Source: a bacterium (GTDB lineage Archaea > Nanobdellota > Nanobdellia > SCGC-AAA011-G17 > GW2011-AR17). Taken from it: 53,456 nucleotides of DNA. This document shows positions 1,664-49,100 of this stretch, piece after piece; the first letter of the stretch is position 1, and every line of letters starts with the position of its first letter. The notes under the pieces are model-generated. The model was not told where the DNA came from. It saw only the letters and a program-made list of their open reading frames with translations, and made no database searches. The position numbers and the translations under genes are program-made. Location: contig JAUYPF010000035.1 of NCBI GenBank assembly GCA_030697685.1, positions 1 through 53,456 on the forward strand. Direction: 5' to 3'.

Positions 1664-3925
1664 ATGGTTAATAGGCACAGAGACTTCATAACAGCATACC
1701 AATTAACATGCACAGAACCAAGATTTGCAGAAGCCCTAGAAAGAAAATTTATGGGCTTTATAGGAAATGGAAAACAGCATGCTGGAAGAAGAGAAGCCTT
1801 TGAAATCACAAGAGAAGGTTATACCTGTATAATAAAACTCTCTAATAAAGAATATGTTTCTGATTTGGCTTCATTTTTACATAGAGAAGTAAAAGATGGA
1901 ACAATAATTCAAACAATAGATCCTACAAGAGCACAAGAAAATATTGAAGAATATAAAAGGAGAATAGGAAGTTTAGAAGAGCAACTTAGTCTAACAAGTG
2001 ATAAAATTGAAAGATTAGGAAGTGATTATACGGCAGTAGAAAAAAGGGCTACAGATCTTACAAGAACGAATGAAGAACTAACAATAATATACCAACAAAC
2101 AGAAGAAAGATATAAAAGAGAAAGAACAGATCTGAATCTAAGACTTACAGATTTAGAAACAGCACTTGCAAATAAAGATTCATTTGACAAAGAAATAGAA
2201 CAATTTAAAGAAATAGAAAAAACATGGAAAAAAGTTAAAGAATGTATTGGAGAAAGAGAGCTAGAAGAAATTATTGCAATAACCAGAGAAGGAAGTGAGG
2301 CCTATCTCAAAGCACAAATACCTAATTATAAAAATATGGAAAAACTAGGTGGAAGAGAACAAATTCTTGCAGAAAAAGGAAGAGCATTTGAAGAGACAGA
2401 CATACACCAAGAAATACAAAAAGCAGAAGGGATTATAAAATATTACGATAGGTTAAAAAAATATTTCACAGAAGATGGAATGATTACAGATGCAAAAGCA
2501 GCAGTAAAAGATTTAGCTATTCCAGAAGCACTTCTCCAAAGACTATTTGCAACGACAAAAGAAGAAGTGCCAAAATATGAAGTAATTTTAAGTAAAAGAG
2601 AAGAAGCAAAAAGGCAGCATCAACAAAAGCAGGGAATTGCTGAATCTTTAGAAAGATTAGAGAAAGAATATCAAGATATTGCTAATATACGACAAAAAAT
2701 AGAAAGAATACTAGAAACAAATAGAACTATAGCATTAGAACTAAAATTACTAGGTGAAGACACAGAAAATATTATATTTGAGGGGAGGCTTCCTCTACAA
2801 AAAACAAATGCAGAAACAGAACTAGGAAGAACATTGCAATTATGTATGCTTGCAACAATAACAGATAAAGAAAATTTTCCAGGTTTAGAATATAGTGAAA
2901 TAGATAACAAAAATGTAACATATCAATTTAAACTTCCAAAAACAAACGCACAAACAGCACTACAAACAACACATACACTTGCAGAAAGAATGACTACTCT
3001 TCTTGGAGAAACGGACTTTGGACTTGCAGGAGGAAAACTAAGAATTCTTTATTCAGGGATAATTGGTGAGCTCCCAACAATAGAAACAGAACAAAGACCT
3101 GTAATAACAATAAAAGAAAATACTCCAAAAGTACAAAATATAGAACTAAATCAAGGATCTAAAATTCTAAGTTATGAAGATTTTATAAAATTACAAGATA
3201 AAGAAGCAGGCCAGTTAGGTATATATCTTCCAACAATAGAAGACTTAAATCTATCTCAAAGAAAAGAGGCAACAGAAGGAACAAAATTAAACCATCTTGG
3301 AGCAAGAGAAATTATTCTTGCAATGGCAGAAACAGGAAGAGTAAGATCTAAAAAAATTGCTCCGTACATAAAAGAAAGAATAAAAGAATTGTATGGATTT
3401 CATATTTTAGAAGAAAAAGAAAGAGATTTTAGATATTCTTCTAGAATGAATGGATGGCTTGCAAGTTTATCCACAGATTTTATTAAAAAACTAGACAATT
3501 TTATTCGTCCTAATCCTTGTTTTAATGTTACAGAAAGAATAATCAAAAGAGATCTAAAAGAGTATAATGAAGAAGATAGAAAACTTCTTTATACTTTCAA
3601 ATCAAAAATTCCATTAGGGTTGCATACAGTCAGGCAAGCAATAGAATATGAAAAAATGGCTGAAGAAAGAATTTCTGCAGGAGAAAGTTTTTCACCTGGA
3701 GAATCAAGATCTATTCTAGCAGTAAAAGCAGCAAGGGTTTTTGATCATTATGTCATCCTTGACATTCTTAAAAAGAATCCAACAACTGCAAATGAACTCC
3801 TATACAATGTTCAAGCTTTTCTACCAATGGCAAATGAGGAATTTATTGGAAGAAGTCTACATAGATTGAGAAAAGCAAAGTTAGAAGATAGATTAGAAAG
3901 AAGAATAGGAGTGCTGCATAGATGA
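1664..3925 (+). CDS. Large coiled-coil protein with probable C-terminal winged helix-turn-helix domain(s)
   Basis: Heptad-rich E/K/L segments at about aa 90-350; C-terminal VILDILKKNPTTANELL...FIGRSLHRLRKAKL fits a wHTH pattern; no Walker A motif. Confidence 0.6.
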   Translation: MVNRHRDFITAYQLTCTEPRFAEALERKFMGFIGNGKQHAGRREAFEITREGYTCIIKLSNKEYVSDLASFLHREVKDGTIIQTIDPTRAQENIEEYKRRIGSLEEQLSLTSDKIERLGSDYTAVEKRATDLTRTNEELTIIYQQTEERYKRERTDLNLRLTDLETALANKDSFDKEIEQFKEIEKTWKKVKECIGERELEEIIAITREGSEAYLKAQIPNYKNMEKLGGREQILAEKGRAFEETDIHQEIQKAEGIIKYYDRLKKYFTEDGMITDAKAAVKDLAIPEALLQRLFATTKEEVPKYEVILSKREEAKRQHQQKQGIAESLERLEKEYQDIANIRQKIERILETNRTIALELKLLGEDTENIIFEGRLPLQKTNAETELGRTLQLCMLATITDKENFPGLEYSEIDNKNVTYQFKLPKTNAQTALQTTHTLAERMTTLLGETDFGLAGGKLRILYSGIIGELPTIETEQRPVITIKENTPKVQNIELNQGSKILSYEDFIKLQDKEAGQLGIYLPTIEDLNLSQRKEATEGTKLNHLGAREIILAMAETGRVRSKKIAPYIKERIKELYGFHILEEKERDFRYSSRMNGWLASLSTDFIKKLDNFIRPNPCFNVTERIIKRDLKEYNEEDRKLLYTFKSKIPLGLHTVRQAIEYEKMAEERISAGESFSPGESRSILAVKAARVFDHYVILDILKKNPTTANELLYNVQAFLPMANEEFIGRSLHRLRKAKLEDRLERRIGVLHR

Positions 3926-5421
3926 AATCCCTCAAAGACCTTATTAAAGGGCAGCAACCTATTGGAGAAGCATTAAGGGATTTTAGAGCACAAGATTTGA
4001 ATATGGAAGATCTTCTTGAGGGAAGACTTTCCAGAGAAGAAATAACAAAAACACTAGGGCCATCATTAGATCTTGCAGCATTTGGAACAGGTGAATTAGG
4101 AGGAAGAATTATTGTTATTGAACCACCAGATACTTTAGTAGATGGAAAAGGAAGACCAGTACGATTATACTATGTCATTGGTGGAGAGACTTTAACTATT
4201 AATGGAGAACCAGGAGATAGGCCTTTTTATAAAAGAAAAGATATGGAAGCCATACTCCCATTAGACTTAACTGAAATTACTATAGATACAAGTGGACAAC
4301 CACAAATTCAAAGAAAAACAAAAGAAACAGAAAAAAGAAATCCAAATACACCAGAGAAATTAAAAGAAGGAAAAGCAACAACAAAAAGAAGAACAACACA
4401 ATTTGATGCATTATTATATTCTTACTTACTGAAGAACGGAGATGATATTGCACACTTAGTAAATGGTTTAGAAGAAATACCTAAAACAAAACAAGCTATT
4501 TCTGGAGAAGCAGCATTAAGAGAACATTTCCCAGAAGCCGATGCACTTCTTGCATTTGGTGTAACAAAAGTGCATTCATTAGAATCCTGGTTACAAGAAA
4601 TGGTTCAAGAAAGAATTTCAAATTTAAAAAGAGATATCAAAGAGTTTTATACAACAACAGAAGGAAAAGAATTTGTAAGAGAATTTATGAACCAAGAATT
4701 TCCACAAACATATGATCATGCACCAGAAGTCATGAAATGGATCATTAATTATGGAATAGAAGGAAGACAGCCTCAATTTTTACTTTCTGCAATAGGTGCA
4801 GGAATCTTAGGAGAAGAAAAAGAAAAGAAACAAGTATATAGATTCTGGGGCAGAGTTGCAAAAGCAACAAGAGAAGCTGCATCAAATACAGTATTAATCG
4901 AAAAAGGATATTTAGAAGGAAAACATAACATTGATGATATTTATATACCATTATTAAGAGAATTAAGAAATAGAAGAGGGATTTATTCTGGATCTACAGT
5001 TGAAGCAAGTTTATTTGGCCTGTTTGGTTTAGGATTATTACTAGATTCTAAAGGAGAAGTCATAAACGCACATTCTCTAAACAGAACATATACAGAAACA
5101 GGAAGATACATTATAAATAATTATCCTACTATAAAAATTTTAATTGATGAAATGGTAAAAGATGAGGAATTAAGAAAAAAATATTCCTCTTCTAAAACTA
5201 CATCAGGGCTTATTCAAAGAGCAATTCTAAACGAAGAAAGTTTACGTGAAAGACTAACCATGACCAAAGCAGAGAAAGGAGAAATGAAAACAGTTCCTAT
5301 TTCAGAAGCATTACTAAATTTTGTCATCCCAGCATATTTACGAGTAGAAATAGATAGATACAAACCATGTATGACATTAGAAACAGATGCACATTTCTTA
5401 AGAAACACCATGAGTGAGTGA
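3922..5421 (+). CDS. Hypothetical protein (possible MerR/Xis-like HTH at the N-terminus)
   Basis: 499-aa ORF, ATGA overlap with the upstream stop, SD AGGAG; LSREEITKTLG...PFYKRKDMEAI weakly resembles excisionase-type HTH. Confidence 0.55.
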   Translation: MKSLKDLIKGQQPIGEALRDFRAQDLNMEDLLEGRLSREEITKTLGPSLDLAAFGTGELGGRIIVIEPPDTLVDGKGRPVRLYYVIGGETLTINGEPGDRPFYKRKDMEAILPLDLTEITIDTSGQPQIQRKTKETEKRNPNTPEKLKEGKATTKRRTTQFDALLYSYLLKNGDDIAHLVNGLEEIPKTKQAISGEAALREHFPEADALLAFGVTKVHSLESWLQEMVQERISNLKRDIKEFYTTTEGKEFVREFMNQEFPQTYDHAPEVMKWIINYGIEGRQPQFLLSAIGAGILGEEKEKKQVYRFWGRVAKATREAASNTVLIEKGYLEGKHNIDDIYIPLLRELRNRRGIYSGSTVEASLFGLFGLGLLLDSKGEVINAHSLNRTYTETGRYIINNYPTIKILIDEMVKDEELRKKYSSSKTTSGLIQRAILNEESLRERLTMTKAEKGEMKTVPISEALLNFVIPAYLRVEIDRYKPCMTLETDAHFLRNTMSE

Positions 5422-17694: not shown

Positions 17695-19166
<1,472 letters not shown>

Positions 19167-19239
19167 TTTATTTTAATCTAAAAAATTAAAATTTAATTTT
19201 TACTAAGCGCTTAAAAATCCATACCTCAATCATATTTAT

Positions 19240-19347
19240 GGGCCCGTAGCTCAGCCTGGTAGAGCACCTGCCTTGCAAGTAGGGGGCCTCGGGTTCGAAA
19301 GTGAATCCCCAATATTAAGAGGATCCTCGGAAGTCCCGACGGGTCCA
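19240..19347 (+). tRNA. tRNA-Ala(TGC) with a 34-nt intron (19300-19333) at position 59/60
   Basis: GGGCCCG/CGGGTCC acceptor stem, CT-TGC-AA loop; BHB with TTCG/CGGA helix and AAA, AGT bulges; splicing restores TTCGAAT. Confidence 0.92.
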
Positions 19348-19457
19348 TATCATAGTCACCATTTGACAAATATAATGCGGCGCATTTCTAAAAAGAAATG
19401 TGCTAAGGGTACTTAACCTCTTGAAACCCAAGAGAGAAATCATATTCAACAATTAGT

Positions 19458-19478
19458 ACCATGCATAGGTAAGAAGGA
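19458..19478 (+). repeat. 23S processing stem, 5' arm (perfect 21-bp inverted repeat with 22406-22426)
   Basis: ACCATGCATAGGTAAGAAGGA / TCCTTCTTACCTATGCATGGT. Confidence 0.85.
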
Positions 19479-19486
19479 AATTTAAA

Positions 19487-22396
19487 TAGTTACTACTAAC
19501 GCCATTAGATGGAAGACTTGGTTCAAGACACTGATGAAGGGCGTGGCAAGCAACGAAAAGCTTCGGCGAGCTGCATGCGAGCATTGAACCGAAGATACCC
19601 GAATGAGACTTCTCAGAAAATCCGAAAGGATAAGGAACCTAGGGAATTGAAGCGTCTCAGTACCTAGAGGAAAAAAAATCAATAGAGATTCCGTGAGTAT
19701 CAGCGAGAAAAAACGGAAGAGAGCAAACTGAATCCTACGCAGAAATGCGTTGGAGATGTGGTGTTACAGACTCACCTTTATACCTTAACTTGTTAACTCG
19801 AAGTCTCCTGGAAAGGAGTGCCAAAGAGGATGATAGCTCCGTAGAGAAAAACAAGAAGGAGAGTGAGTATCTTGAGTAATGTACATTGGAAATTGTGCAC
19901 GAATATGGGAGACATCAACTTCCAACTCTAAATATGTCTTGAGTCCGATAGCATATGAGTACCGTGAGGGAAAGTTGAAAAGAACTCGTGATAGAGAGCG
20001 AAAAGAACCTGAAATCTAATGGCTATGGTGAGATACGGCTCCTCGGAGTTGTATCGTACGTTTCGAATAACGAGCCAGGGAGTTTATCTTAGTGGCGAGG
20101 GTAAGTCCATCAAGGACGTACTCGAAGGGAAACCAATTTCTCGCAGTTTACAAGGAGAGAGGTATGAAAATGCCTTTAGTCATTAGGATATGACCCGAAA
20201 CCGGGCGATCTAGTCGTGAGTAAGGTGAAGCCGTTCTCTGAATGGTGGAGGCCTGAAGACGTGCTACGTGCATGTGTTGTTCTAACTTGCGGCTAGGGGT
20301 GAAAAGCCAATCGAGCCCGGTCATAGCTGGTTCCTACCGAAATAGGCCTAAGTCTAGTCTCAGTGGAGATAGTTGAAGAGGTAGAGCGACGGATTTGAGG
20401 ACTCGGGAGAGAAATCTCTCATCCTCTTGTCCAACTCCAAATTTTCCAACATCGTAGAAGCTGGGAAACGGGGATGCTGGGGTAAACTTGCATTCCAAGA
20501 GGGGAACAACCCCAACTATTGTTAAGGTCCCTAAATAGCAACTAAGTGTTAAAGGGTGAAAGGTGTTCATCACCACAGACAGCGGGGAGGTTGGCTTAGA
20601 AGCAGCCATCCTTTAAAGAAAGCGTAACAGCTCACCTGTCAAGGTCATGTGCCCTGAAAATGGACAGGACTAAGTTGTTTACCGATACAATAGTCCTTCA
20701 TACAAGAGTATGAAGAGAGGTAGGTAGGTGTTCTGTGAGGGCAGAACTGCATTCGAGAGAGTGTTGGGACCTCATAGAATTAAGAATCCTGGTAGTAGTA
20801 GGATCTATTTAAAGTGAGAATCTTTAAGACCGAAAGGGCAAGGGTTTCTCAGCAATGTAAATCAGCTGAGAGTTAGTTAGTCCTAACCACAATCCTAACA
20901 GGAACTGTGGGAAAGGGAAAACGGTTAATATTCCGTTACTATAGAAGTACGCGCGGCAACGCAAGCTTTGTTTCTGACACTTTGGAATAGACTCACAAGT
21001 ACCATCGTGCTTGTTAAAAAGAACAAATCAATGGAGTATCATAACGATGAGAAATTGATTACATCTTTGAGGAGCTCATTTTGTGAGTTGAGTTGATATC
21101 TAGAGTCAGTGAAAAAGGAACAGAGAAGGATCTTCTATAACTATACCTAGATCCGACACTGGTGTCCCTGCGTGAGAAGCGCAAGGTCTGAGGGAGTAAT
21201 TTTGTTTAGGGAACTCGACAGATTGGCCCCGTACCTTCGGTATAAGGGGTCCCTGCGATTGTATTTGTATAAGTGCGATTACAGGGTTCAATAACTCGGG
21301 CGATCCGACTGTTTAACAAAAACATAACAAACTGCGAGCCAGAAATGGTGTGTATAGTTTGTGACGTCTGCCCAGTGCTAGTACTTCAAACTCCGGTTCA
21401 ACGGAGCTAAGAGCTAGTAAACGGCGGGAATAACTATAATTCTCTTAAGGTAGCGAAATGCCTTGTCGTTTAATTGACGACCTGCATGAAGGGCGTAACG
21501 AGATCGCTATTGTCCCAAACAAGATCCCCCCGAACATTACATTCTGGTGCAAAGTCCAGAGACTTCCAGTGGGAAGCGGAGACCCCATGGAACTTTACTG
21601 TAGCTTATTGTTGCGATGCGAGTTTTATTGTGTAGCGTAGGTGGGAGTCGCTATGTTCTGGTCGCTAGATCAGGAATAGACAACAATGAAACACCACTCT
21701 ATAGAGCTTGCATTGCTCACTTTCGCAAGAAAGGACAGCAGTTGGTGGACAGTTTGGCTGGGGCGGCACCCAGCTGAAAAGATATCAGTTGGGCCCAAAG
21801 GTAAGCTCATCAGGTTCAGAAATCCTGAGTAGAGTGCAAGAGCAAAAGCTTGCCTGACTGTATTTCGAACAGTAAGAAATGCAGCACCGAAAGGTTGGTC
21901 TAGCGAACCCCTGTGTCCCAATTGATGGGGGCCAGGTATGACAGAAAAGCTATCCTGGGGATAACTGAGTCGTCGCGCCTAAGAGCTCAAATCGACGGCG
22001 CGGCTTGCTACTTCGTTGTCGGCTCATCGCATCCTGGGTGTGCAGAAGCACCCAAGGGTGGAGGTGTTCACTCATTAAAGCGGTTCGTGAGCTGGGTTAA
22101 GAACGTTGCGAGACAGTTTGTATGATATCTACTGGAAGTGCAAAAAGGTCTGAGAGGAAGGAGTATTTAGTACGAGAGGAACGGTACCTCGACGCCTCTG
22201 GTGTATCGCTTATCTGATAAGGTAGGGCGAGCAGCTACGCGTTACATCATAAGTGCTGAAAGCATCTAAGCACGAAAGATACCTCGAAAAGAGACCGAGA
22301 ACTCCTGCAGAAGACAGGGTTGATGGGACTGGCGTGTACGCATCAAGCTTCGGCGAGATGTTCAGCGCGCAGTTACCAATCGTTCGATTTTAGCTA
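19487..22396 (+). rRNA. rrl: 23S rRNA (ends approximate), no large insertion
   Basis: P-loop GGCTGGGGCGG, GGGATAAC, GAGCTGGGTT, sarcin-ricin loop AGTACGAGAGGAAC, GCTGAAAGCATCTAAG. Confidence 0.98.
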
Positions 22397-40776: not shown

Positions 40777-42546
40777 TTATAAAGCTTTCTTACTCAAATC
40801 TTCTAACGCATCAAGCATAACTTCAATAGCAACAAATCCTCGATTCCAAAAAGCTTCTGACTCTAAATCAATACCTAACTCCAAAGCAATCTCTTTCGGA
40901 CTCTTCGAACCACCATAAGAGAGAAATTTCAAATATTTTGGAACAAAAGCCTTCCCTTCTTTTTTATACATTGCATACAAAGCAAGAGTAAGTAAATTTC
41001 CAAAACTATAACTATAACAATAAAAAGGACTATTATATATGTGAGGAATATACAACCACTCATACTGAAAATTCTTTGAGACTACAACAGAACTTCCAAA
41101 TTGTTCTTCTAAATTCGCTAAATACAATGCAGAAAGTTGGTCAATGGTCGCACCTTTTTCTACTGCTTCATGTGCTTTTTTCTCAAAAAGAACAAAATAA
41201 CTTTGTCTAATTATAGTTGCATACATATCATCTAACTTTGACATGAGCAATGCTTGTTTACTCTGAACATTCTTTTCATCTTCTAATAATTTCTCTGTCA
41301 AAAGCATCTCCGCAAACACAGATGCAGTCTCTGCAAAAACAAGAGGTGGATGAGAAAGAAGAGATACCTGTTTTTTCGTCAACAAATCATGCACACCATG
41401 TCCCAACTCATGCGCAAGCGTAGAAACATCTCTCTCCATACCAAGATAATTAATCAAAACATAAGGAGTGTGTCCAGCGACATCATAACAATAAGCACCA
41501 TGCATTTTTCCTTCTTGAATAAGCGAATGCACATGTTTTTCTTCTAAGATTTTTCTTCCCATGACTTCCATTTGTGGTGAAAAGTGTCTATAAGAATCTA
41601 AAACAACAGTCACTGCATCAGAAAAACTTCTTTTCTTTTCTTTAACAAAAAAAGGTGCATAAAGGTCATAGCGAGTCATTTTTTTCATCTTCAAAAGTTT
41701 TGTTTTCAAGAGAAAATAACGATGAAACACAGAAATATTTTTTTGCACAGAAGCAAGCATGACTTCAACAGCCTTATCAGAAATATTATTTCCTAAATTT
41801 CTTGGAGAAATAGGCTTAGCATATCCTCGTAAAGTCAAAAAGTCATTCTTCCAATCACTTACAATAAGTTTATAGAGTTCACCAAGCATATCTTTATTCT
41901 GTGCATACTTCTCTAAAAGAAGCTCATAGGCTTGTTTTCTTTCTGCAGCAGAAGAGCTTCGTACATACACAGTCAACTGCTCTTTATTCAATTTCTTCAC
42001 TTTTTTCCCAACATAAAAATCATACGAAAAGGACGTTGTCATCAAACTATACAAAGTAAAGAATGCACTTGACCCAGTAGTCTCTTTCAAAAGAAGTATT
42101 TGTTCCTCTTTCTCACTAAGAGTATAAGGTTTTTCTAATAACAACTTCTGAAAATAATAACGATACTCTCCTGCACCTGCAATGATCTTTTGAGCAGATT
42201 TCTCATCCAAAGACTTAAACCAAATATGAAAAAACAAAATCCTATTTCCAACAGCAGCAGTAAATTGCTTCATCCTATCTTGAAAAGCTCGTGCTTCTTG
42301 GGATTTTGTATTCTCAGAAAACCAAAGGTAAGAATAACAAATTAAAACAGAACATCGCTGCTCTACAGATTCAATGTCCTTCAACAAAAGAATAATTTTT
42401 TGAAGAGAAAAAGAATCTAACTGCATTCGTGAACTCTCAATAGCAACAATATTCGTTTCTAATTTTTTTAAAAAAGCATCAAAATCTTTTCCTTGAGGAG
42501 CTTTAAACAAATGTGTAAGATCCCAAGAAGATTGTACATAAGCCAT
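40777..42546 (-). CDS. pepF: Oligoendopeptidase F (M3B)
   Basis: WDLT, TLAHELGHGVH, AETAS, WLYIPH, FYCYSY. Confidence 0.95.
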   Translation of the reverse strand: MAYVQSSWDLTHLFKAPQGKDFDAFLKKLETNIVAIESSRMQLDSFSLQKIILLLKDIESVEQRCSVLICYSYLWFSENTKSQEARAFQDRMKQFTAAVGNRILFFHIWFKSLDEKSAQKIIAGAGEYRYYFQKLLLEKPYTLSEKEEQILLLKETTGSSAFFTLYSLMTTSFSYDFYVGKKVKKLNKEQLTVYVRSSSAAERKQAYELLLEKYAQNKDMLGELYKLIVSDWKNDFLTLRGYAKPISPRNLGNNISDKAVEVMLASVQKNISVFHRYFLLKTKLLKMKKMTRYDLYAPFFVKEKKRSFSDAVTVVLDSYRHFSPQMEVMGRKILEEKHVHSLIQEGKMHGAYCYDVAGHTPYVLINYLGMERDVSTLAHELGHGVHDLLTKKQVSLLSHPPLVFAETASVFAEMLLTEKLLEDEKNVQSKQALLMSKLDDMYATIIRQSYFVLFEKKAHEAVEKGATIDQLSALYLANLEEQFGSSVVVSKNFQYEWLYIPHIYNSPFYCYSYSFGNLLTLALYAMYKKEGKAFVPKYLKFLSYGGSKSPKEIALELGIDLESEAFWNRGFVAIEVMLDALEDLSKKAL

Positions 42547-42588
42547 ACTTTAAAAAAAGACCTACTATTTATATGCCTTCCCTCATCT

Positions 42589-42628
42589 TACCCTTTAATA
42601 GTATTAATAAAAAATAAAGGGTAAAGCT
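42589..42628 (+). repeat. Palindromic site TACCCTTTA-N17-TAAAGGGTA-AAGCT, copy 1 (upstream of fic, abutting its TATA)
   Basis: Read directly; direct repeat of 43659-43698. Confidence 0.9.
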
Positions 42629-42655
42629 TATAAAAGGCAAGAACCACCTAAAACT

Positions 42656-43657
42656 ATGGTATATATCTATAAAAAGAAAAGTGGAGAAAAAAACTACTAT
42701 TATCTACGAGCTTCACAAAAGAAAGGGAAAAAAACAATCGTCAAAGACATTGCATATTTAGGAACAACAATAGAAGAGGTAGAACAAGCAATCATAAAAC
42801 TTCCTAAATGGGAGAAAGAAATTAGAAAAGCATATCACACTATCAATAATTTTCTCAAATCAAACCATTACAAAGAGAAAGCAAAAAAAGAAAAAAGAAA
42901 AAAAGATGAATACCTAGAACAAGATCTCTTACTGGAAATAGAAGCTACAAAAATACATTTTCAATCAGTATTCAAAAAGAAAAACACACTCACACAAAAA
43001 GAAACAATAAAAATTTTTACCATTGAGTTTGCATTCAACACTACTTCTCTAGAAGGAAACACAATAAAACTACAAGAAGCAAAAATATTACTTGAAGAAG
43101 GATTAACACCTAAGAATAAAACTCTCAGAGAAGTTTATGATCTTCAAAACACGGAAGAAGTACTTGTAGAAGTAATTTCTGATAAAGAAGATCTCAGCCA
43201 TGAGAAAATACAGGATATACACCTTAAGCTCATGAAGAATATTGACGAGAGAAAGGGCTATAGAAGAGAAGAAGTCAGAGTCTTCAAATCAAATTTTGAT
43301 GCAAGTCCAGCACCTTATGTCAAAACAGATATGGATCTTCTTCTCAAATGGTACAACGAAAATAAAAAAAAGCTCCACCCCTTGATTCTTGCAGGGATAT
43401 TTCATCATAAATTTGAAAAAATACATCCATTTATGGATGGAAATGGAAGAACAGGAAGAATGCTACTCAATAAGATTCTACTTTTGAATGAATACCCACC
43501 GCTCATTATTAGAAAAAAAGAAAGAAAAGGGTATATCCAAGCATTAAGAGAAGCAGATAAAAGCAACCCTTTAGAAAGAGAGAGAAAAAACTATGCCAGC
43601 CTCAATCAGTTTTTAGGAAAAGAACTCATAAGCAGTTATTGGGATATATTTCTCTAA
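42656..43657 (+). CDS. fic: Fic family protein (class II) with a basic N-terminal beta-hairpin domain
   Basis: HPFMDGNGRTGR; inhibitory motif TTSLEGN; N-terminus YIYKKKSGEKNYYYL...IAYLG. Confidence 0.93.
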   Translation: MVYIYKKKSGEKNYYYLRASQKKGKKTIVKDIAYLGTTIEEVEQAIIKLPKWEKEIRKAYHTINNFLKSNHYKEKAKKEKRKKDEYLEQDLLLEIEATKIHFQSVFKKKNTLTQKETIKIFTIEFAFNTTSLEGNTIKLQEAKILLEEGLTPKNKTLREVYDLQNTEEVLVEVISDKEDLSHEKIQDIHLKLMKNIDERKGYRREEVRVFKSNFDASPAPYVKTDMDLLLKWYNENKKKLHPLILAGIFHHKFEKIHPFMDGNGRTGRMLLNKILLLNEYPPLIIRKKERKGYIQALREADKSNPLERERKNYASLNQFLGKELISSYWDIFL

Positions 43658-43658
43658 C

Positions 43659-43698
43659 TACCCTTTAAAATAATATTCTAAAAATAAAGGGTAAAGCT
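43659..43698 (+). repeat. Palindromic site TACCCTTTA-N17-TAAAGGGTA-AAGCT, copy 2 (1 nt after the fic stop)
   Basis: Read directly; same arms and spacer length as copy 1. Confidence 0.9.
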
Positions 43699-45382
43699 AT
43701 TTTTTCGCTGTATGATATGCTAAAAATATATGGTACAATTCCTTTGCATTCAACACATGGTCTAAAGAAATCTTATCTCGAGAGATAAAAAACGCATCAC
43801 ACTGCCTTCCCCCTATAGAATCATGTGAACCAAAATGGAAATGTTCAAAAGCTATAATTCTCTCCCCATCAAAAGCACCATTGATAATCAAATCTCCAGA
43901 ATATTTCAACTCCGCAAAATATTTTATTTGCTTGACTAATTTTTTCTCATCACCATATTTTTGTAAAAATCTTTCTCCAACAAACTTCACATCTTTATCA
44001 GTGAGGATAACTTTTCCTTTTGCATGAAGAACAATAATATCCTTGCCTTCTTTCCCAATAGCAAAACCAACACCAGGATGCCCAACAAGTTTCTCCACAA
44101 AGCCAGGATATTTTTTTTCAATCTCAGAAATGTCACAACGATGAGCACTATCGGTAAAATACATCTGTGCTAAAGAAGAAGAATAAAGCATCAAAATTTG
44201 CTTTCTATTCTTCCAATCTATGCTAGGGTCTTTATGTTCCTTACGTAATTGTCTTCCCATATATTTCAATAAAGCATGTATTCCTATGCGCAAAGGAAAA
44301 GACATGTGTTCATAATAATAATGCAACTTATAGTAGATATATTTCATACGACTACTTCGTTCATCTTGATCTGAATGCAAACCTTTCGTAGGAAGATGAC
44401 TAATTCTCTCCACAAAAGTTTCAAAACTTTCATAATAAAGTCGATCAAAAGGAATCGCAGGAACTTGCCCATGATCGGAAAGCACATAGAAGTCATATTC
44501 ATTTTTTCTCGCAACTTTATACATTCGACGAAGATCTGCATCAATCCCCTTAAGCAAAGTAAATGCACTCAAAGAATTAGGTCCTCGATAATGCGAAATC
44601 CAATCATATCCTCCATAGGTAAGATAAATACAAGGGACATTTCTTTGCATTTCTAATAGTGCTGTTTCAGTAGAAATCTCTCTCACTGTAGCATTAATAA
44701 AAGTACGAAAAAAAGGGAAATAAGGAAAGATGAATGGCCAATTAAAATGTTTATTATACAAAAGACCTTTCAAAATCTCTAAAGAACTTTCATAAAGCTC
44801 CACACAAAATTCTATACAACTAGAAAAAATAACTTTTGTCGTTGCAAAAGGATTGAGAAGAATAAGCGCTAGAATATCTCTCAAATTTTTTTGTCCTGTT
44901 TCGGTTTTATAGAGATGAGCCACAGTAATTATAGAACGTGCAGCTCCTCCACAAAAAATATTTCCTATAGATGTTCCACCAGTAAGTATACCATAATTCT
45001 TTGCACTGATTTCCTCTTCTATTGCTCGTGCACTATCAGCAGTACCCATAACATACTGCTTCTGATTTTTTTTATCAAGAAAGCGAAAACCAGGAATATT
45101 TGAATTCTCATTATACATAATACCTGCTTGCACAAAAGGAGTTGTAGAAGGGTAGCCCGGATCAAAACGAGCAACATGATAACTCTTGAGAAGTTTTGTT
45201 AAAAAAGGAATATAGCGAGTATTTCGTAATTGTTGAAGAAGAGAATAAGAAAGCCCATCTACTTGAACGATAATAAATTTTTTATGTTGATGCGAAAGAT
45301 CTTGCAGCTTGAGTCTTCTTTTAAGAAGTGCTGATCTGCTTAAGCGTTTGCGATAAAAATCCTGTACTTTTTTTCTATTCAT
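43697..45382 (-). CDS. Alkaline phosphatase superfamily (nucleotide pyrophosphatase/phosphodiesterase-like) protein
   Basis: QVDGL, PSTT, YDWISHYRGP, LSDHGQ, GSH; start 45382 avoids overlapping the tRNA. Confidence 0.85.
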   Translation of the reverse strand: MNRKKVQDFYRKRLSRSALLKRRLKLQDLSHQHKKFIIVQVDGLSYSLLQQLRNTRYIPFLTKLLKSYHVARFDPGYPSTTPFVQAGIMYNENSNIPGFRFLDKKNQKQYVMGTADSARAIEEEISAKNYGILTGGTSIGNIFCGGAARSIITVAHLYKTETGQKNLRDILALILLNPFATTKVIFSSCIEFCVELYESSLEILKGLLYNKHFNWPFIFPYFPFFRTFINATVREISTETALLEMQRNVPCIYLTYGGYDWISHYRGPNSLSAFTLLKGIDADLRRMYKVARKNEYDFYVLSDHGQVPAIPFDRLYYESFETFVERISHLPTKGLHSDQDERSSRMKYIYYKLHYYYEHMSFPLRIGIHALLKYMGRQLRKEHKDPSIDWKNRKQILMLYSSSLAQMYFTDSAHRCDISEIEKKYPGFVEKLVGHPGVGFAIGKEGKDIIVLHAKGKVILTDKDVKFVGERFLQKYGDEKKLVKQIKYFAELKYSGDLIINGAFDGERIIAFEHFHFGSHDSIGGRQCDAFFISRDKISLDHVLNAKELYHIFLAYHTAKK

Positions 45383-45464
45383 TGTTTTCCAAGAAAAAGA
45401 AAAGAAAGCTCTCTTAAAAAAGCTTACCCAAAGATTTATAAGGCATTGAAAAGTCATAATCGAC

Positions 45465-45568
45465 AGCGAGGTAGGGCAGAGAATTAAAGGAAACTTTAAG
45501 TCGTCCAATCAGGAGTGCCCGTCGGGCTCATAACCCGGAGGTCGTCGGTTCAAATCCAACCCTCGCTA
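45465..45568 (+). tRNA. Initiator tRNA-Met(CAT) with a 29-nt intron (45480-45508) at position 15/16
   Basis: A1-U72, GGG/CCC anticodon stem, CTCATAA loop; GGGC/GTCC helix with AGA and AAT bulges; intron hairpin TTAAAG-GAAA-CTTTAA. Confidence 0.92.
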
Positions 45569-45595
45569 CTTTTTTTTAAAAATATATCCTATTTA

Positions 45596-46153
45596 ATGAA
45601 AGAAAAAATCTCAAAAAAACAACTAGGCTATGTAGTAGGAGTATACTATGGAGATGGGTATATATATTATGATAAGAAATCAAGACACTATAGCATAGAG
45701 TTTTCTCTAAATTCTTTAAAAGATTTAGACATTCTTAAATTTTTAAAAGAGATACTCATAAAAGAAGGATATAATCTTTTCATTAAAAAAGATAAAAGAG
45801 GAAACTGGTTTGTAATTAAAATGTATTCAAAACAACTCTATTCTTATTTGAAAGAATACAAACTACAAAATCTCAAAAGGGAAACAAAAGATTTCAAAAT
45901 AGGATTTATTTCTGGTGTCATTGACGCAGAAGCCTATGTAGGCAATAGTACTATTGAAGTCATAAATACAGACTTAGAATTACTCAAAATCACTAAACAA
46001 ATACTTAATGAAATCAACATTAGTTCAAGTCTTAAAAAACGAGTAAGATCTAAAAAAGATACAAAAGATTCTTTCAGATTACTAGTCTCTACAAAGATCA
46101 AAAAAGCAAAGCATATCTCCCAAAAAGTTTTAAGACTATACCCTACAAAATAG
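45596..46153 (+). CDS. Free-standing double-motif LAGLIDADG homing-endonuclease-like protein
   Basis: LGYVVGVYYGDG and FISGVIDAEA, then NTDLELL; ATG 45596 lies 27 nt after the tRNA. Confidence 0.88.
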   Translation: MKEKISKKQLGYVVGVYYGDGYIYYDKKSRHYSIEFSLNSLKDLDILKFLKEILIKEGYNLFIKKDKRGNWFVIKMYSKQLYSYLKEYKLQNLKRETKDFKIGFISGVIDAEAYVGNSTIEVINTDLELLKITKQILNEINISSSLKKRVRSKKDTKDSFRLLVSTKIKKAKHISQKVLRLYPTK

Positions 46154-46191
46154 AAAGCATTATTAAACAAAAAACCTCCACAATAGAAAGG

Positions 46192-49100
46192 ATGAGGAAA
46201 AAGATTGGTATCATTATAGTATTATGTATTCTTTTACTCAGTCAAATAAATTCTGAAGATACTATTATTGAACCAGAAGTACTCAATACTTTAGAAAATA
46301 ATAACGAAGTTCAAGTAATTGTAGAACTCAAGGAACCATTACAAGAACTTTCAATACTAAAACAGCTTTCAACTGCTGATGTCGAACTCAATCATTTCTC
46401 AGGAAACTCCTACGCAGCAAAAGTCAATGAAGAAGAACTTCAAGAACTCATTAATGATCCTAATGTCAAAAGCATACAGCAAGATGAAATTTTTCATATC
46501 CTTCTCGCAGACACAGTCCCGCTCATCAACGCATCAATAATACATTCGAGACAAAATGGCACAACAAACATGACAGGTCTTGGACAAAGTGTTTGTGTGA
46601 TTGATACAGGAATAAATACAACACATCCCGGACTCGCAGGTCGCATTGTCGCCCAAAAATGTTTCTGCGCAGTCTCTGACGCAGGTTCAGGAGGTTGCTG
46701 TCCAGGAAATGTTGCAGAGAACAGCACTGCCGCAACAGACGACCAAGGCCATGGAACGCATATCTCTGGTATCGCCGCAGGGAATGGCTCAGGTATTACA
46801 GGAGTTGCACCAGAAGCATCCATTATCGCAGTAAAAGTTGCCGATGCTGCTGGTGACGCACTTTTTTCAGATATTACCTCAGCAGTAAATTGGTGTACAA
46901 GCAATGCATCAAAATATAATATTTCAGTTATTTCAATCAGTTTAGGAGGAGGTTCTTACGCTACTTCTTGTGATTCCTCCTACACATCACTCTCTTCTGA
47001 AATTAACACTGCATGGAATAACAATGTATCTGTTGTTGTCGCTTCAGGAAATTCTGGTTTCACCACAAACATGACTGCTCCTGCATGTATCAACAAAACA
47101 ATCTCAGTATCTTCAACTACAAAAGCTGACGCAATTTCTTCTTTCTCAAATAGAAACGCATTAACAGACCTCTTCGCTCCAGGCTCTTCCATTAATTCAA
47201 CAAACCTATCCAGCATCACCAAAGTTAGTTCAGGAACATCCATGTCTGCTCCTCATGTTGCTGGGGTAGTTCTCCTGATGCAACAATATAAAGAAACAGT
47301 TGAACGAAGAAATCTAACAGTCAGTGAAATAAACATGACACTTGCAACAAATGGAACAAGTATTGATGATAATGCAGGATCAGGAAGAACTTTCATTCGT
47401 GTAGACGCAAAAAAAGCAGTTACTGCTGGAGATACTCTTTTCCCACAAATAGAAAACCCAAATACAACTTCTACAACATTATTTATTTATAGCAATATTA
47501 CTTTTATTGCAAATGTCACTGATGTCAACAGGGAAACAGTATGGATTGAAGGAAACTGGTCTGGTTCTCGAGTAAACTATACCATAACAAACAAAGTAGG
47601 AGATCAATATAATTATTCTTTGCATAATAATAGTTTTACTGCAGGTCAAGTATTTCATTGGCGTATTCACGCAAATGATAGTAATAACAATGAAAATATA
47701 ACAAGCTGGTTTACAATAACCATACTTACTGGCGCACCAAGAATAACTCTCCATAATCCTAATAACCTAACAAACACAAACAATCTTTCAAACACATTTA
47801 ACTTTACTGCTATAGAAGATGTTTCTGGAAATTTTAATTGTAGTATATACATAAACAGCATAAAAAATCAAACATCAACAACCGTCTCGAATAATACACT
47901 TACAGAATTCAGACAAAATCTTACAGAAGGAACACATCTCTGGAACATTGCATGTACAGATTCTCATAATCTTATTGGCAACTCTTCACTTAGAACATTA
48001 ATTTTGGATACAACATCCCCAACATTCAACGCAGAAGGATATACATCTCTTGTAGAACTTGGTGATAATCAATCCTATTCTATTAATCTGACAGAGCTAT
48101 ATCTCAATTATGCCAACTTCTCCTATATTGGAGTAAACTACACCCTCACAAACAGCTCCACAAATTTCTCTCGAGTATGGAGAACCTTCCAAAATGGAAC
48201 AAACCTTTTTACAATCTATGCATTAGATACTGCAAGGAATCTCAACACAACAACAGGAAATTTCACAGTCAATGATACCATAACTGGTCCGAGAATTCTC
48301 AATACTCTCTATAGCAGTAGCATAACACAAAACACCACACAAAATATTACAGTCTGGGTTTTGAACAACTTTCCTCTTTCTGCAATTCTCATCAATCCAA
48401 ATGGCTCAAACTACTCCATGGCAAATAATACTGCATATAATTTCACTTTTGCATTTACTGCAACAACTTGTGGTTCACAAAGCTTCAAAATATTTTCAAA
48501 TGACACAGCCAATGCTGGGGTAACAAATACAACATCCTATACAGTAACAGGCTGTTGTGGCGACTCCTCGTGTAGTTCTGGAGAATCCTGTTCTACATGT
48601 GCAGCAGACTGTGGAGCATGTTCCACTTCAAGTTCTACAACAACAGGAGCAGGCGGAGGAGGTGGTGGAGGAGGAACAACACCAACAACAAAATCTTTAG
48701 CACCAAGTGCAGTTATAGAAGCACCAAAAATAATAACAGAAACATTTGCGGCAGCAAGCCCAGATACAGGAATCCAAATTGAACTTGTAAGTGAAAACAT
48801 TCCTATAAGCATGGTTGATATCACACTAAATAGTGCTCTAGAAAATGTAGAAGTAACAATAGAAGCACTTGATGCTCGACCTACAGAAATTGAAAGTCCA
48901 GATGGAGTTATTTATCAATATTTAAAATTTACTACAGTCAACTTAGAAAATACAGCAATTGATTCTGCAAAGCTAGAATTTTATGTTCCAAATATTTGGT
49001 TTTTAGAAAATGCTGTTAATGAAAAGACAATACAATTACTGAGATATAATGAAGAATGGCAAGAACTCCCAACAGAATATCTTCGCTTAGAAAATGCAAA

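Follow-up and report, generated by a model that had tools for sequence, protein, structure and literature searches.

The 53,456-nt stretch of DNA analyzed here (the window; contig JAUYPF010000035.1 of assembly GCA_030697685.1) belongs to a small archaeon of ∼33% GC, and it carries a fic gene that is tightly enclosed by two direct copies of a palindrome. Based on comparisons across related genomes, the most plausible reading is that the N-terminal domain of the Fic protein itself recognizes these palindromes as its cognate sites. The explanation we favor for the whole layout, to which we assign a probability of roughly 0.55, is that of an autoregulated class II Fic with a fused, putative DNA-binding domain, a duplicate operator downstream of the gene, and repeats that recombine with each other. 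A preliminary description of this DNA had proposed either a single-gene cassette moved by a trans-acting recombinase or dual operators for the N-terminal domain of Fic, and we find that both alternatives capture part of the system. Homologues in databases are named Fic family proteins of Woesearchaeota, Pacearchaeota, or Nanoarchaeota.

Each palindrome has the form TACCCTTTA-N17-TAAAGGGTA-AAGCT, and the two copies are located at 42589-42628 (copy 1; arms at 42589-42597 and 42615-42623) and 43659-43698 (copy 2; arms at 43659-43667 and 43685-43693), 1070 bp apart. The arms of copy 1 extend to 10 nt (TTACCCTTTA/TAAAGGGTAA). All 28 arm and flank positions are identical between the copies; the 17-nt spacers agree at 9 of 17 positions when read by eye, with 46% identity over the inner 13 nt, and since the last five spacer bases (AAAAA) are common to both copies the identical right block amounts to 19 nt. 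Specifically, the right end of copy 1 lies 3–4 nt 5′ of the TATA-like box of fic, TTATAAAA (42628-42635), while the stop codon TAA occupies 43655-43657 and copy 2 begins one base after it. Every detail that the preliminary description gave of the pair—i.e. its position, identical arms, equal spacers, and the placement of copy 1 against the TATA box and of copy 2 directly after the stop codon—is thus confirmed. The AAGC ahead of the TATA-like box resembles a transcription factor B recognition element (BRE), and the distance of 20 nt between this box and the ATG implies that the fic mRNA would be leaderless or nearly so. A second TATA-like box (ATATAAAT on the minus strand) precedes the divergent gene of an M3 peptidase, which copy 1 may also affect.

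When spacers of N10-25 are allowed, the pattern matches twice in the window, compared with 0 matches in each of 100 dinucleotide-preserving shuffles, and these two matches are the only ones in the genome (1,065,959 bp, 65 contigs). A relaxed scan of the genome, which tolerated as many as 3 arm mismatches and any spacer of 5–40 nt, also found nothing comparable elsewhere.

The sole open reading frame (ORF) between the palindromes is fic itself. Its active-site motif, HPFMDGNGRTGR at aa 257-268, satisfies HPFx[D/E]GN[G/K]R, with H257, P258, F259, D261, G262, N263, G264, and R265 invariant in 17 orthologues. An inhibitory motif of the form (S/T)xxxE(G/N) is found in the same chain, N-terminal to the core (T129-T-S-L-E133-G134), and E133, G134, and N135 are invariant in 17 orthologues as well. 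Using an AlphaFold model of the protein (mean predicted local distance difference test score, pLDDT, 90.7), Foldseek retrieves BT_2513 (3cuc_A, E 5e-13, TM 0.80 by target), FICD (6i7g, E 1.5e-12), and CdFic (4x2d). Sequence and model together identify the protein as a class II Fic, and it is likely an adenosine monophosphate (AMP)-transferase. No C-terminal helix-turn-helix (HTH) is present, as Pfam gives only Fic and the modeled chain stops right after the Fic core helices. There is also no small co-directional ORF besides fic between the palindromes and no adjacent antitoxin gene, the neighbors being the M3 peptidase gene and a phosphodiesterase gene.

The N-terminal domain (aa 1-80) has no Pfam family at E values up to 10, and a profile search of the PDB gave no match (best E 0.09, a ribosomal protein). 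Two candidate identities for this domain were rejected. One, an AP2/integrase arm-type fold, is recovered at chance level (3ju0 and 3jtz at Foldseek E 1.1–1.6, probability 0.12–0.13, and no Z of 5 or more). The other, an IS1634-type transposase DNA-binding domain with the palindromes as insertion sequence (IS) ends, was dropped because the carriers of 563–565 aa are glycine-tRNA ligases. A homodimer prediction for the full Fic protein, run without controls, scored 0.00.

We surveyed related genomes for the same arrangement; G and L numbers below are labels of these genomes and of the collected loci, respectively, and G000 is the genome of the window. A Fic match is found in 46 of 61 related genomes, and the 80-aa N-terminal part alone is matched in 82 of the 240 genomes of the order. 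Our orthologue set consists of 43 non-redundant full-length fic loci from related Woesearchaeota-like genomes, after removal of duplicates (L019, L020), truncated loci (L024, L025, L028), distant loci with another repeat layout (L026, L027), and L145 (G061:C13), where the gene pattern found no gene. A search of genome contigs with generic Fic motifs returned mostly bacterial Fic genes, with only L029 and a few archaeal loci being useful.

The upstream palindrome is present in 43 of 43 orthologues, and in 41 of these its right end lies 28–33 nt before the ATG. Of the other two loci, L127 probably has a miscalled start codon, and in the second the script took a neighboring palindrome. In each orthologue, the right arm is followed by a TATA-like TTTATA or TTTAAA. 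The length of the spacer is conserved, with an inner distance of 13–14 nt in 60 of 65 sites, and its sequence is not. A downstream palindrome was called by script in 22 of the 43 loci, in 18 of which it begins no more than 3 nt from the stop codon, and two degenerate copies recognized by eye (L110, L146) raise the count to 24. Homologous fic loci thus do have paired sites, and the paired layout is a recurrent feature of the fic family rather than an accident of the window.

The type of arm differs according to the class of N-terminal domain that the gene encodes. Specifically, all six proteins of the IHVK / YY[TS]LR / CNLG type have TTCCCC...GGGGAA arms, and the 37 proteins of the IYKK / YYYLR / AYLG type have TTACCC...GGGTAA arms (36 of 37 for the left arm, 37 of 37 for the right). 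Simple lineage drift is excluded as the cause, because both protein types coexist on single contigs (G012:C30 and G013:C5), where each gene has its own arm type. Other Fic genes with the domain present repeats of different sequence at their TATA boxes. For example, the box is enclosed by the inverted repeat CTTACCCTTACA...GTAAGGGTAAG in the paralogue on G000:C20 and by ATTGTCCACA-N21-TGTGGACAAT in the one on G000:C37, while two direct copies of TGTAGTCACCTCTA surround it in a third Fic gene of the G013 array. Among seven distant Fic genes examined, five (Thermoplasmata, Woesearchaeota) have an exact inverted repeat of 10–13 nt enclosing the TATA box; of the other two, L098 (Micrarchaeota) has two shorter repeats seen by eye and L049 has TGTAG-type direct copies.

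The same domain is also found outside the Fic family. In three genomes it forms an extension of ∼65 aa on glycine-tRNA ligase (GlyRS), and these ligases exceed the cut-off of the NCBIfam glycine-tRNA ligase equivalog, with the match starting at residue 64–70. TGTA-type repeats are present on both sides of the TATA box in all three GlyRS genes with the domain, and the fusions look like synthetases with a built-in candidate autoregulator. Rows in the Atlas, which we regard as leads only, hint at the domain on prolyl-tRNA synthetase (ProRS), nucleotidyltransferases, and B12-binding proteins.

No complementarity is maintained between the arms themselves. Independent arms would be expected to agree in 25.5 of 43 sites at half-site position 7 and in 24.6 at position 8, and the observed counts, 25 and 31, are close to this; the pattern argues for a protein that reads half-sites and not for a hairpin. 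TGTA or TGTG is found at the start of many sites, and this may reflect a conserved contact combined with a variable specificity part. The earlier argument that conserved arms with drifting spacers favor protein recognition over a simple target duplication was sound, and the proposal that the palindromes are operators for the Fic N-terminal domain is strongly supported by comparison, given the promoter sites in 43 of 43 orthologues, the arm type that follows domain class, and the repeats at GlyRS and paralogue genes. This operator reading is much better supported than one based on a dedicated trans-acting recombinase.

From these patterns we infer a mechanism in which the three-stranded sheet of the N-terminal domain would read the half-site TGTA-RR-GGGTAA, and in which a dimer would bind the palindrome as two inverted half-sites. 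The cores of these half-sites are ∼31 bp apart, i.e. three helical turns, and would therefore lie on the same face of the DNA. Archaeal repressor operators usually abut or enclose the BRE/TATA, and binding at the upstream copy, against these elements, would shut off transcription of fic itself, as has been shown for the bacterial Fic protein CccR. The downstream copy would provide a second protein site 1070 bp away, and the dimers bound at the two copies may cooperate, e.g. by looping. Because the copies are direct repeats of 37–40 bp, they could also recombine, which would homogenize them and could remove or insert the gene; a solo palindrome would be left behind. With an operator on both sides and self-repression, the gene would switch itself off and probably constitute a self-contained movable unit.

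The downstream copy duplicates the palindrome alone, as the exact repeat ends within a few bases of the palindrome edges in 20 of 22 loci. Upstream and downstream spacers of the same locus have a mean identity of 0.65, with at least 0.9 in 6 of 22 pairs, and spacers of different loci have a mean identity of 0.44, with at least 0.7 in 4 of 172 pairs. In G005, whose syntenic locus encodes a protein of 87% identity, the two spacers equal each other and the arms are perfect; compared by eye with the window, these spacers agree with the downstream spacer at 13 of 17 positions and with the upstream one at 10 of 17. Because spacers are alike within loci, and identical in G005, we conclude that the copies exchange sequence, through gene conversion or repeated recombination. 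In the window, the full identity of arms and flank alongside a diverged spacer points to selection on the downstream arms. We also considered the downstream copy as an insulator against convergent transcription, and discarded this idea as the copy has no association with the direction of the next gene.

Several observations weigh against the favored explanation. The downstream copy is missing in 19 of 43 orthologues (∼45%), and hence is not essential, and the direction of the next gene is unrelated to its presence (12 convergent and 10 co-directional with the copy, 8 and 9 without). Its exact confinement to the palindrome is also the expected leftover of site-specific recombination. As for the protein, the N-terminal domain has no recognizable DNA-binding fold (best Foldseek E 0.84; best VIA Z 5.7, a plastid ribosomal protein), and its presence on GlyRS could also mean RNA binding. 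Lastly, the two main domain classes probably stem from one evolutionary split, which leaves few independent covariation events, although the paralogues add more.

The fic unit of the window lies within a lineage-specific insertion. In four genomes of the same genus (G003, G007, G009, and G010) the phosphodiesterase gene is directly followed by radical SAM and THUMP methyltransferase genes, and in G000 and G005 ∼2.9 kb is present between the phosphodiesterase and radical SAM genes. On its right, the insertion stops exactly where copy 2 plus AAGCT stops, and this sequence now provides the stop codon of the phosphodiesterase gene; the left junction corresponds to the former last codons of that gene. 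No palindrome is found at the empty sites of the four congeners. The inserted segment also includes the M3 peptidase gene, for which G005:C31 has a partial copy of 81% identity; the other M3 copy in the genome (G000:C50, 52% identical) matches the gene of the congeners. As a possible target motif for the insertion we considered ACCCTTTA, which is present at the empty site of G003 and not at the other three, and rejected it.

Elsewhere, fic units are found in differing genomic contexts, including arrays in G012 and G013. A pattern search of the 61 genomes yielded 29 distinct hits, which we sorted, partly by eye, into 17 that flank fic orthologues, 1 deletion derivative, ∼4 convincing solo palindromes (G012, G034, G042, and G055), and ∼7 that appear chance-like, a number that fits the 6 hits of a reversed control pattern. 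In the deletion derivative (L136, G008:C108, 994-1100), the upstream palindrome is joined to the last ∼66 nt of fic, which encode ...DEMVKSYWDIFL, and the promoter and ∼930 nt of coding sequence are gone. The solo palindrome of G012 equals the downstream copy of a neighboring unit at all but two positions. Its left flank resembles the flank of that unit's upstream copy (142 alignment columns with 85% mean column identity, the nearest ∼55 nt being nearly identical by eye), and its right flank matches the region beyond the unit. Judged from these alignments, the G012 solo represents a paralogous empty site.

Several units adjoin transfer RNA (tRNA) genes or tRNA-like fragments. According to ARAGORN, the fic stop codon is followed at a distance of 44 nt by a tRNA-Ser in L119 and at 95 nt by a tRNA-Gly in L017. 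In L148 (G150:C50), the whole palindrome-fic-palindrome unit is surrounded by a 34-nt direct repeat of 97% identity (3451-3484 and 4618-4651). This repeat is the classic footprint of integration into a tRNA gene, and the unit has no integrase; the repeat looks like the 3′ part of a tRNA, and its right copy runs into what appears to be a full, intron-containing tRNA on the minus strand that ARAGORN does not call.

Additional observations were made at other palindrome loci. Two solo palindromes, in L137 (G034:C30, 444-1570) and L134 (G042:C1, 1535-2824), adjoin gene pairs that Pfam identifies as HTH-nucleotidyltransferase and HEPN-type; the palindrome is 4 nt after the stop codon of the pair in one locus and 119 nt before the pair in the other. 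Toxin-antitoxin-like units seem to share variable spots with the palindromes. In the array of L133 (G013:C5), the IHVK- and IYKK-type fic genes share >130 nt of near-identical 3′ flank, last codons included (∼2655-2800 and after 5044), and an element containing GGCGGGGGCAT recurs before the next units. The genome of the window itself, at 1.07 Mb, has six further Fic paralogues (contigs C36, C47, C20, C37, C41, and C35), and relatives have up to 12 Fic matches, a striking expansion for such small genomes.

The preliminary statement that no recombinase is nearby holds for the families searched (Phage_integrase, Y1_Tnp, and Resolvase). Resolvase has no match in the genome, and neither Phage_integrase nor Y1_Tnp is found on the window's contig (C11); the genome does encode two tyrosine recombinases (Phage_integrase on C30 and C45) and one Y1_Tnp protein (C48). 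No circle or excision junction across the fic unit is present in the assembled contigs of 4 runs, one of them the probable source of the genome; such contigs cannot show rare forms. Two further features of these data have no bearing on excision, i.e. a 1100-nt contig from a relative (86% identical) that spans only 42610-43695, as a repeat-bounded unitig would, and one joint stepping back 817 in X3, whose insert is unknown and which fits tandem paralogues.

The cassette half of the preliminary proposal is supported by the insertion relative to four congeners, the solo palindromes, the paralogous empty site, and copies that evolve in concert. It stands on weaker ground than the operator half, as no circle, no excised allele of the window locus, and no linked recombinase were found. 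On balance, the fic unit is probably gained and lost as a cassette, via recombination between its copies. A more speculative extension, which we judge rather improbable, would make it a self-recognizing DPANN cassette, whose cargo protein binds both gene ends in the manner of a transposase DNA-binding domain, pairs them, drives excision and re-insertion by host recombination, and silences the gene; the module of domain plus site would then also have been grafted onto enzymes such as GlyRS as an autoregulator.

Among the alternatives to our favored explanation, it is possible, if unlikely, that the palindromes serve primarily for recombination and delimit a mobile single-gene cassette, the circle of which would integrate at a solo palindrome through a recombinase encoded elsewhere, with the downstream copy acting as a second att-like site. 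This would agree with repeats that are restricted to the palindrome in 20 of 22 loci, with upstream and downstream spacers that are identical in 5 loci, and with a module whose end coincides exactly with the right edge of an insertion absent from four congeners. It would also agree with the varied contexts and the arrays of G012 and G013, the ∼4 solos among the 29 hits and the empty site of G012, the tRNA genes or tRNA-like fragments next to several units (the G150:C50 repeat included), and the tyrosine recombinases and Y1 transposase encoded on other contigs. A shared trans-acting recombinase, however, does not explain why site type tracks the N-terminal domain of the enclosed gene within genomes, and the upstream copy is fixed at the TATA box in 43 of 43 orthologues. 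Moreover, the GlyRS promoter repeats have no downstream copy (3′ flanks inspected in L129 and L130), nor do distant Fic genes have a second one, palindromes are lacking at the congeners' empty sites, the locus has no linked recombinase, and the contigs of the 4 runs, where rare forms are invisible, have no circle or excision junction. A somewhat less probable alternative is that the upstream copy alone works as an operator, and that the downstream copy is a functionless by-product of arrival or duplication that is now decaying. Its absence from 19 of 43 orthologues, the gradation of spacers from identical to unrelated, the degenerate copy of L110, and the lack of any link with the direction of the next gene would all be expected under this scenario. 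By contrast, such decay is difficult to reconcile with arms and flank that are 28/28 identical in the window despite a diverged spacer, with the two copies and perfect arms that syntenic G005 keeps at 87% protein identity, and with arms that are intact where spacers are unrelated (e.g. L022, L023, L123, and L147).

We consider it improbable that the palindrome serves a separately encoded transcription factor instead of Fic. The N-terminal domain does not have a recognized DNA-binding fold, and binding by Fic rests on comparison, which would leave room for such a factor; yet the site is unique to fic in the genome, changes with the class of the N-terminal domain within genomes, and accompanies this domain onto GlyRS, and no regulator gene is conserved nearby, as the flanking genes differ between loci. 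Least probable is that the palindromes function as RNA or single-strand hairpins—e.g. a terminator, a stability element, or a folded site of the attC or IS200 type. Hairpins are predicted at −10.1 to −12.3 kcal/mol (z −2.0 to −2.4 relative to shuffles), and T runs are found near copy 2 on both strands. Nevertheless, the upstream copy precedes the TATA box and so lies outside the transcript of the fic promoter, the loop would be 13–17 nt long, and arm positions 7–8 vary without compensation (at position 7, the two arms do not match in 18 of 43 upstream sites). Likewise, Rfam gives no match at E 1 or better at either palindrome (42000-47000 searched, one row at chance level).

Among known systems, the nearest is CccR, a transcription factor and class II Fic toxin from Yersinia pseudotuberculosis with a fused HTH. 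A CccR dimer on AGATAATCAT-N26-ATGATAATCT represses its own promoter, and the inhibitory motif S59ARIEG fits (S/T)xxxE(G/N) (PMC9755527). Both systems combine a class II Fic, its inhibitory helix, and a DNA-binding domain (a candidate one here) in one polypeptide, and both have a widely spaced inverted repeat at their own promoter (10-N26-10 in CccR, 12-N13-15-12 here). They differ in the domain—i.e. a C-terminal HTH in CccR and an N-terminal beta-sheet domain without a Pfam family here—and in the promoter, which is of the bacterial −35/−10 kind in CccR and of the archaeal BRE/TATA kind here. CccR also has one operator, compared with a second exact copy after the stop codon and cassette-like gain and loss here, and its binding is proven where that of the archaeal domain is proposed (PMC9755527). 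The system described here would be of the autoregulating Fic kind, set apart by its unclassified domain, its archaeal promoter, and the bracket of two operators.

Negative autoregulation at a palindromic operator is also typical of Fic/Doc type II toxin-antitoxin operons (Phd-Doc, VbhA-VbhT/FicTA). Those operons share with the archaeal genes a Fic/Doc-fold enzyme, a palindromic operator (a proposed one here), and many paralogues per genome in variable regions. They differ in having an antitoxin gene of its own, which the archaeal locus lacks; there, one protein contains both the alpha-inh motif and the proposed DNA-binding function. Integron cassettes are comparable in having a single ORF, an imperfect palindrome right after the stop codon, arrays, and solo sites. 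The attC core consensus of integrons is GTTRRRY / RYYYAAC with paired arms; by contrast, the arms found here lack GTTRRRY and are not kept complementary, a promoter is part of the unit, the type of site depends on which N-terminal domain the cargo encodes, and no IntI-type integrase is adjacent (Phage_integrase is found only on C30 and C45). For IS200/IS605-type elements or palindrome-associated transposable elements (PATE), there is the single Y1_Tnp gene on C48, and the uncompensated arms argue against hairpin recognition.

Distant paired operators that act through looping are known from lambda CI (OL-OR), gal, and deo, which resemble the present case in that an operator is present twice, at a distance of ∼1 kb, with the regulated gene between the copies or next to them. 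Here, however, looping is only proposed, the second site is exactly at the 3′ end of the gene, and ∼45% of orthologues do not have it. Escherichia coli AlaRS is an example of an enzyme that represses its own gene. Archaeal RbkR is described as an enzyme with a DNA-binding module that controls its own gene (PMC5397151), a pattern that the GlyRS fusions would fit. Relative to RbkR and AlaRS, the putative DNA-binding fold is another one, and the module is common to unrelated enzymes (Fic, GlyRS), each with its own site. Among the papers listed on Fic in archaea and DPANN, palindromes, DNA-binding domains, and autoregulation (supplements aside), we found no description of the domain or of the layout.

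These findings point to a candidate DNA-binding domain that occurs widely among DPANN and other archaea and has neither a Pfam family nor a clear structural match. Its variants each have their own site, sometimes several per genome, and represent protein-site pairs from which a recognition code might be derived. The idea of a self-repressing Fic toxin, recently shown for one bacterial protein, would then also apply to a large family of archaeal Fics that use another domain. Where a gene is located between duplicates of its own operator, its regulation may be linked with its gain and loss. The GlyRS fusions further suggest that essential enzymes, too, are autoregulated by reuse of the module, in genomes where classical regulators are very few.

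Table 1. Features of the fic locus and its surroundings (window positions), and GlyRS genes that encode the N-terminal domain (locus positions).
Feature	Position	Strand	Basis and remarks
fic gene, 333 aa, class II Fic	42656..43657	+	ORF; Pfam Fic E 5.6e-22 at aa 180-275
N-terminal domain of Fic, aa 1-80	42656..42895	+	Strands 2-9, 12-23, and 26-36, three long antiparallel, then helices (models); proposed sequence-specific DNA-binding domain
Upstream palindrome (copy 1) + AAGCT, TTACCCTTTA-N17-TAAAGGGTAA	42588..42628	.	Proposed autoregulatory operator; between two divergent TATA-like boxes
Downstream palindrome (copy 2) + AAGCT	43659..43698	.	Occupies entire gap from fic stop to convergent phosphodiesterase stop; right edge of lineage-specific insertion
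TATA-like box of fic, TTATAAAA	42628..42635	+	20 nt 5′ of ATG; read from sequence, putative promoter element
TATA-like box of divergent M3 peptidase gene, ATATAAAT on minus strand	42567..42574	-	21-28 nt before gene start, 13 nt from left arm of copy 1; read from sequence, putative
M3 oligoendopeptidase gene	40777..42546	-	Pfam Peptidase_M3; extra paralogue, here only in G000 and G005; part of inserted segment
∼2.9 kb segment, M3 peptidase + fic module	40792..43698	.	Absent from four same-genus genomes; left breakpoint approximate, by eye from alignment
Phosphodiesterase / nucleotide pyrophosphatase family gene	43697..45457	-	Convergent with fic
GlyRS with N-terminal domain, L129	1471-3162	-	NCBIfam
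GlyRS with N-terminal domain, L130	1502-3199	+	NCBIfam
GlyRS with N-terminal domain, L131	1485-3179	+	NCBIfam

Other parts of the window present features of their own. At 45465-45569 (+), we find a tRNA-like gene, read as tRNA-Met with anticodon CAT and AGCGAGG/CCTCGCT as its acceptor stem. The D-arm region has an additional insert, and neither ARAGORN nor Rfam calls the gene. Metagenome contigs pile up at 45359-45575 to a depth of 440–930, as expected for a conserved part of a tRNA. Right after this gene and a T run is a gene for a free-standing LAGLIDADG-type endonuclease (45597-46153, +; Pfam LAGLIDADG_3); a longer ORF from 45515 merely reads through the tRNA-like gene. Lastly, GC content reaches 0.43–0.50 at 18001-22000, compared with ∼0.32 elsewhere, and this segment is probably a ribosomal RNA operon.

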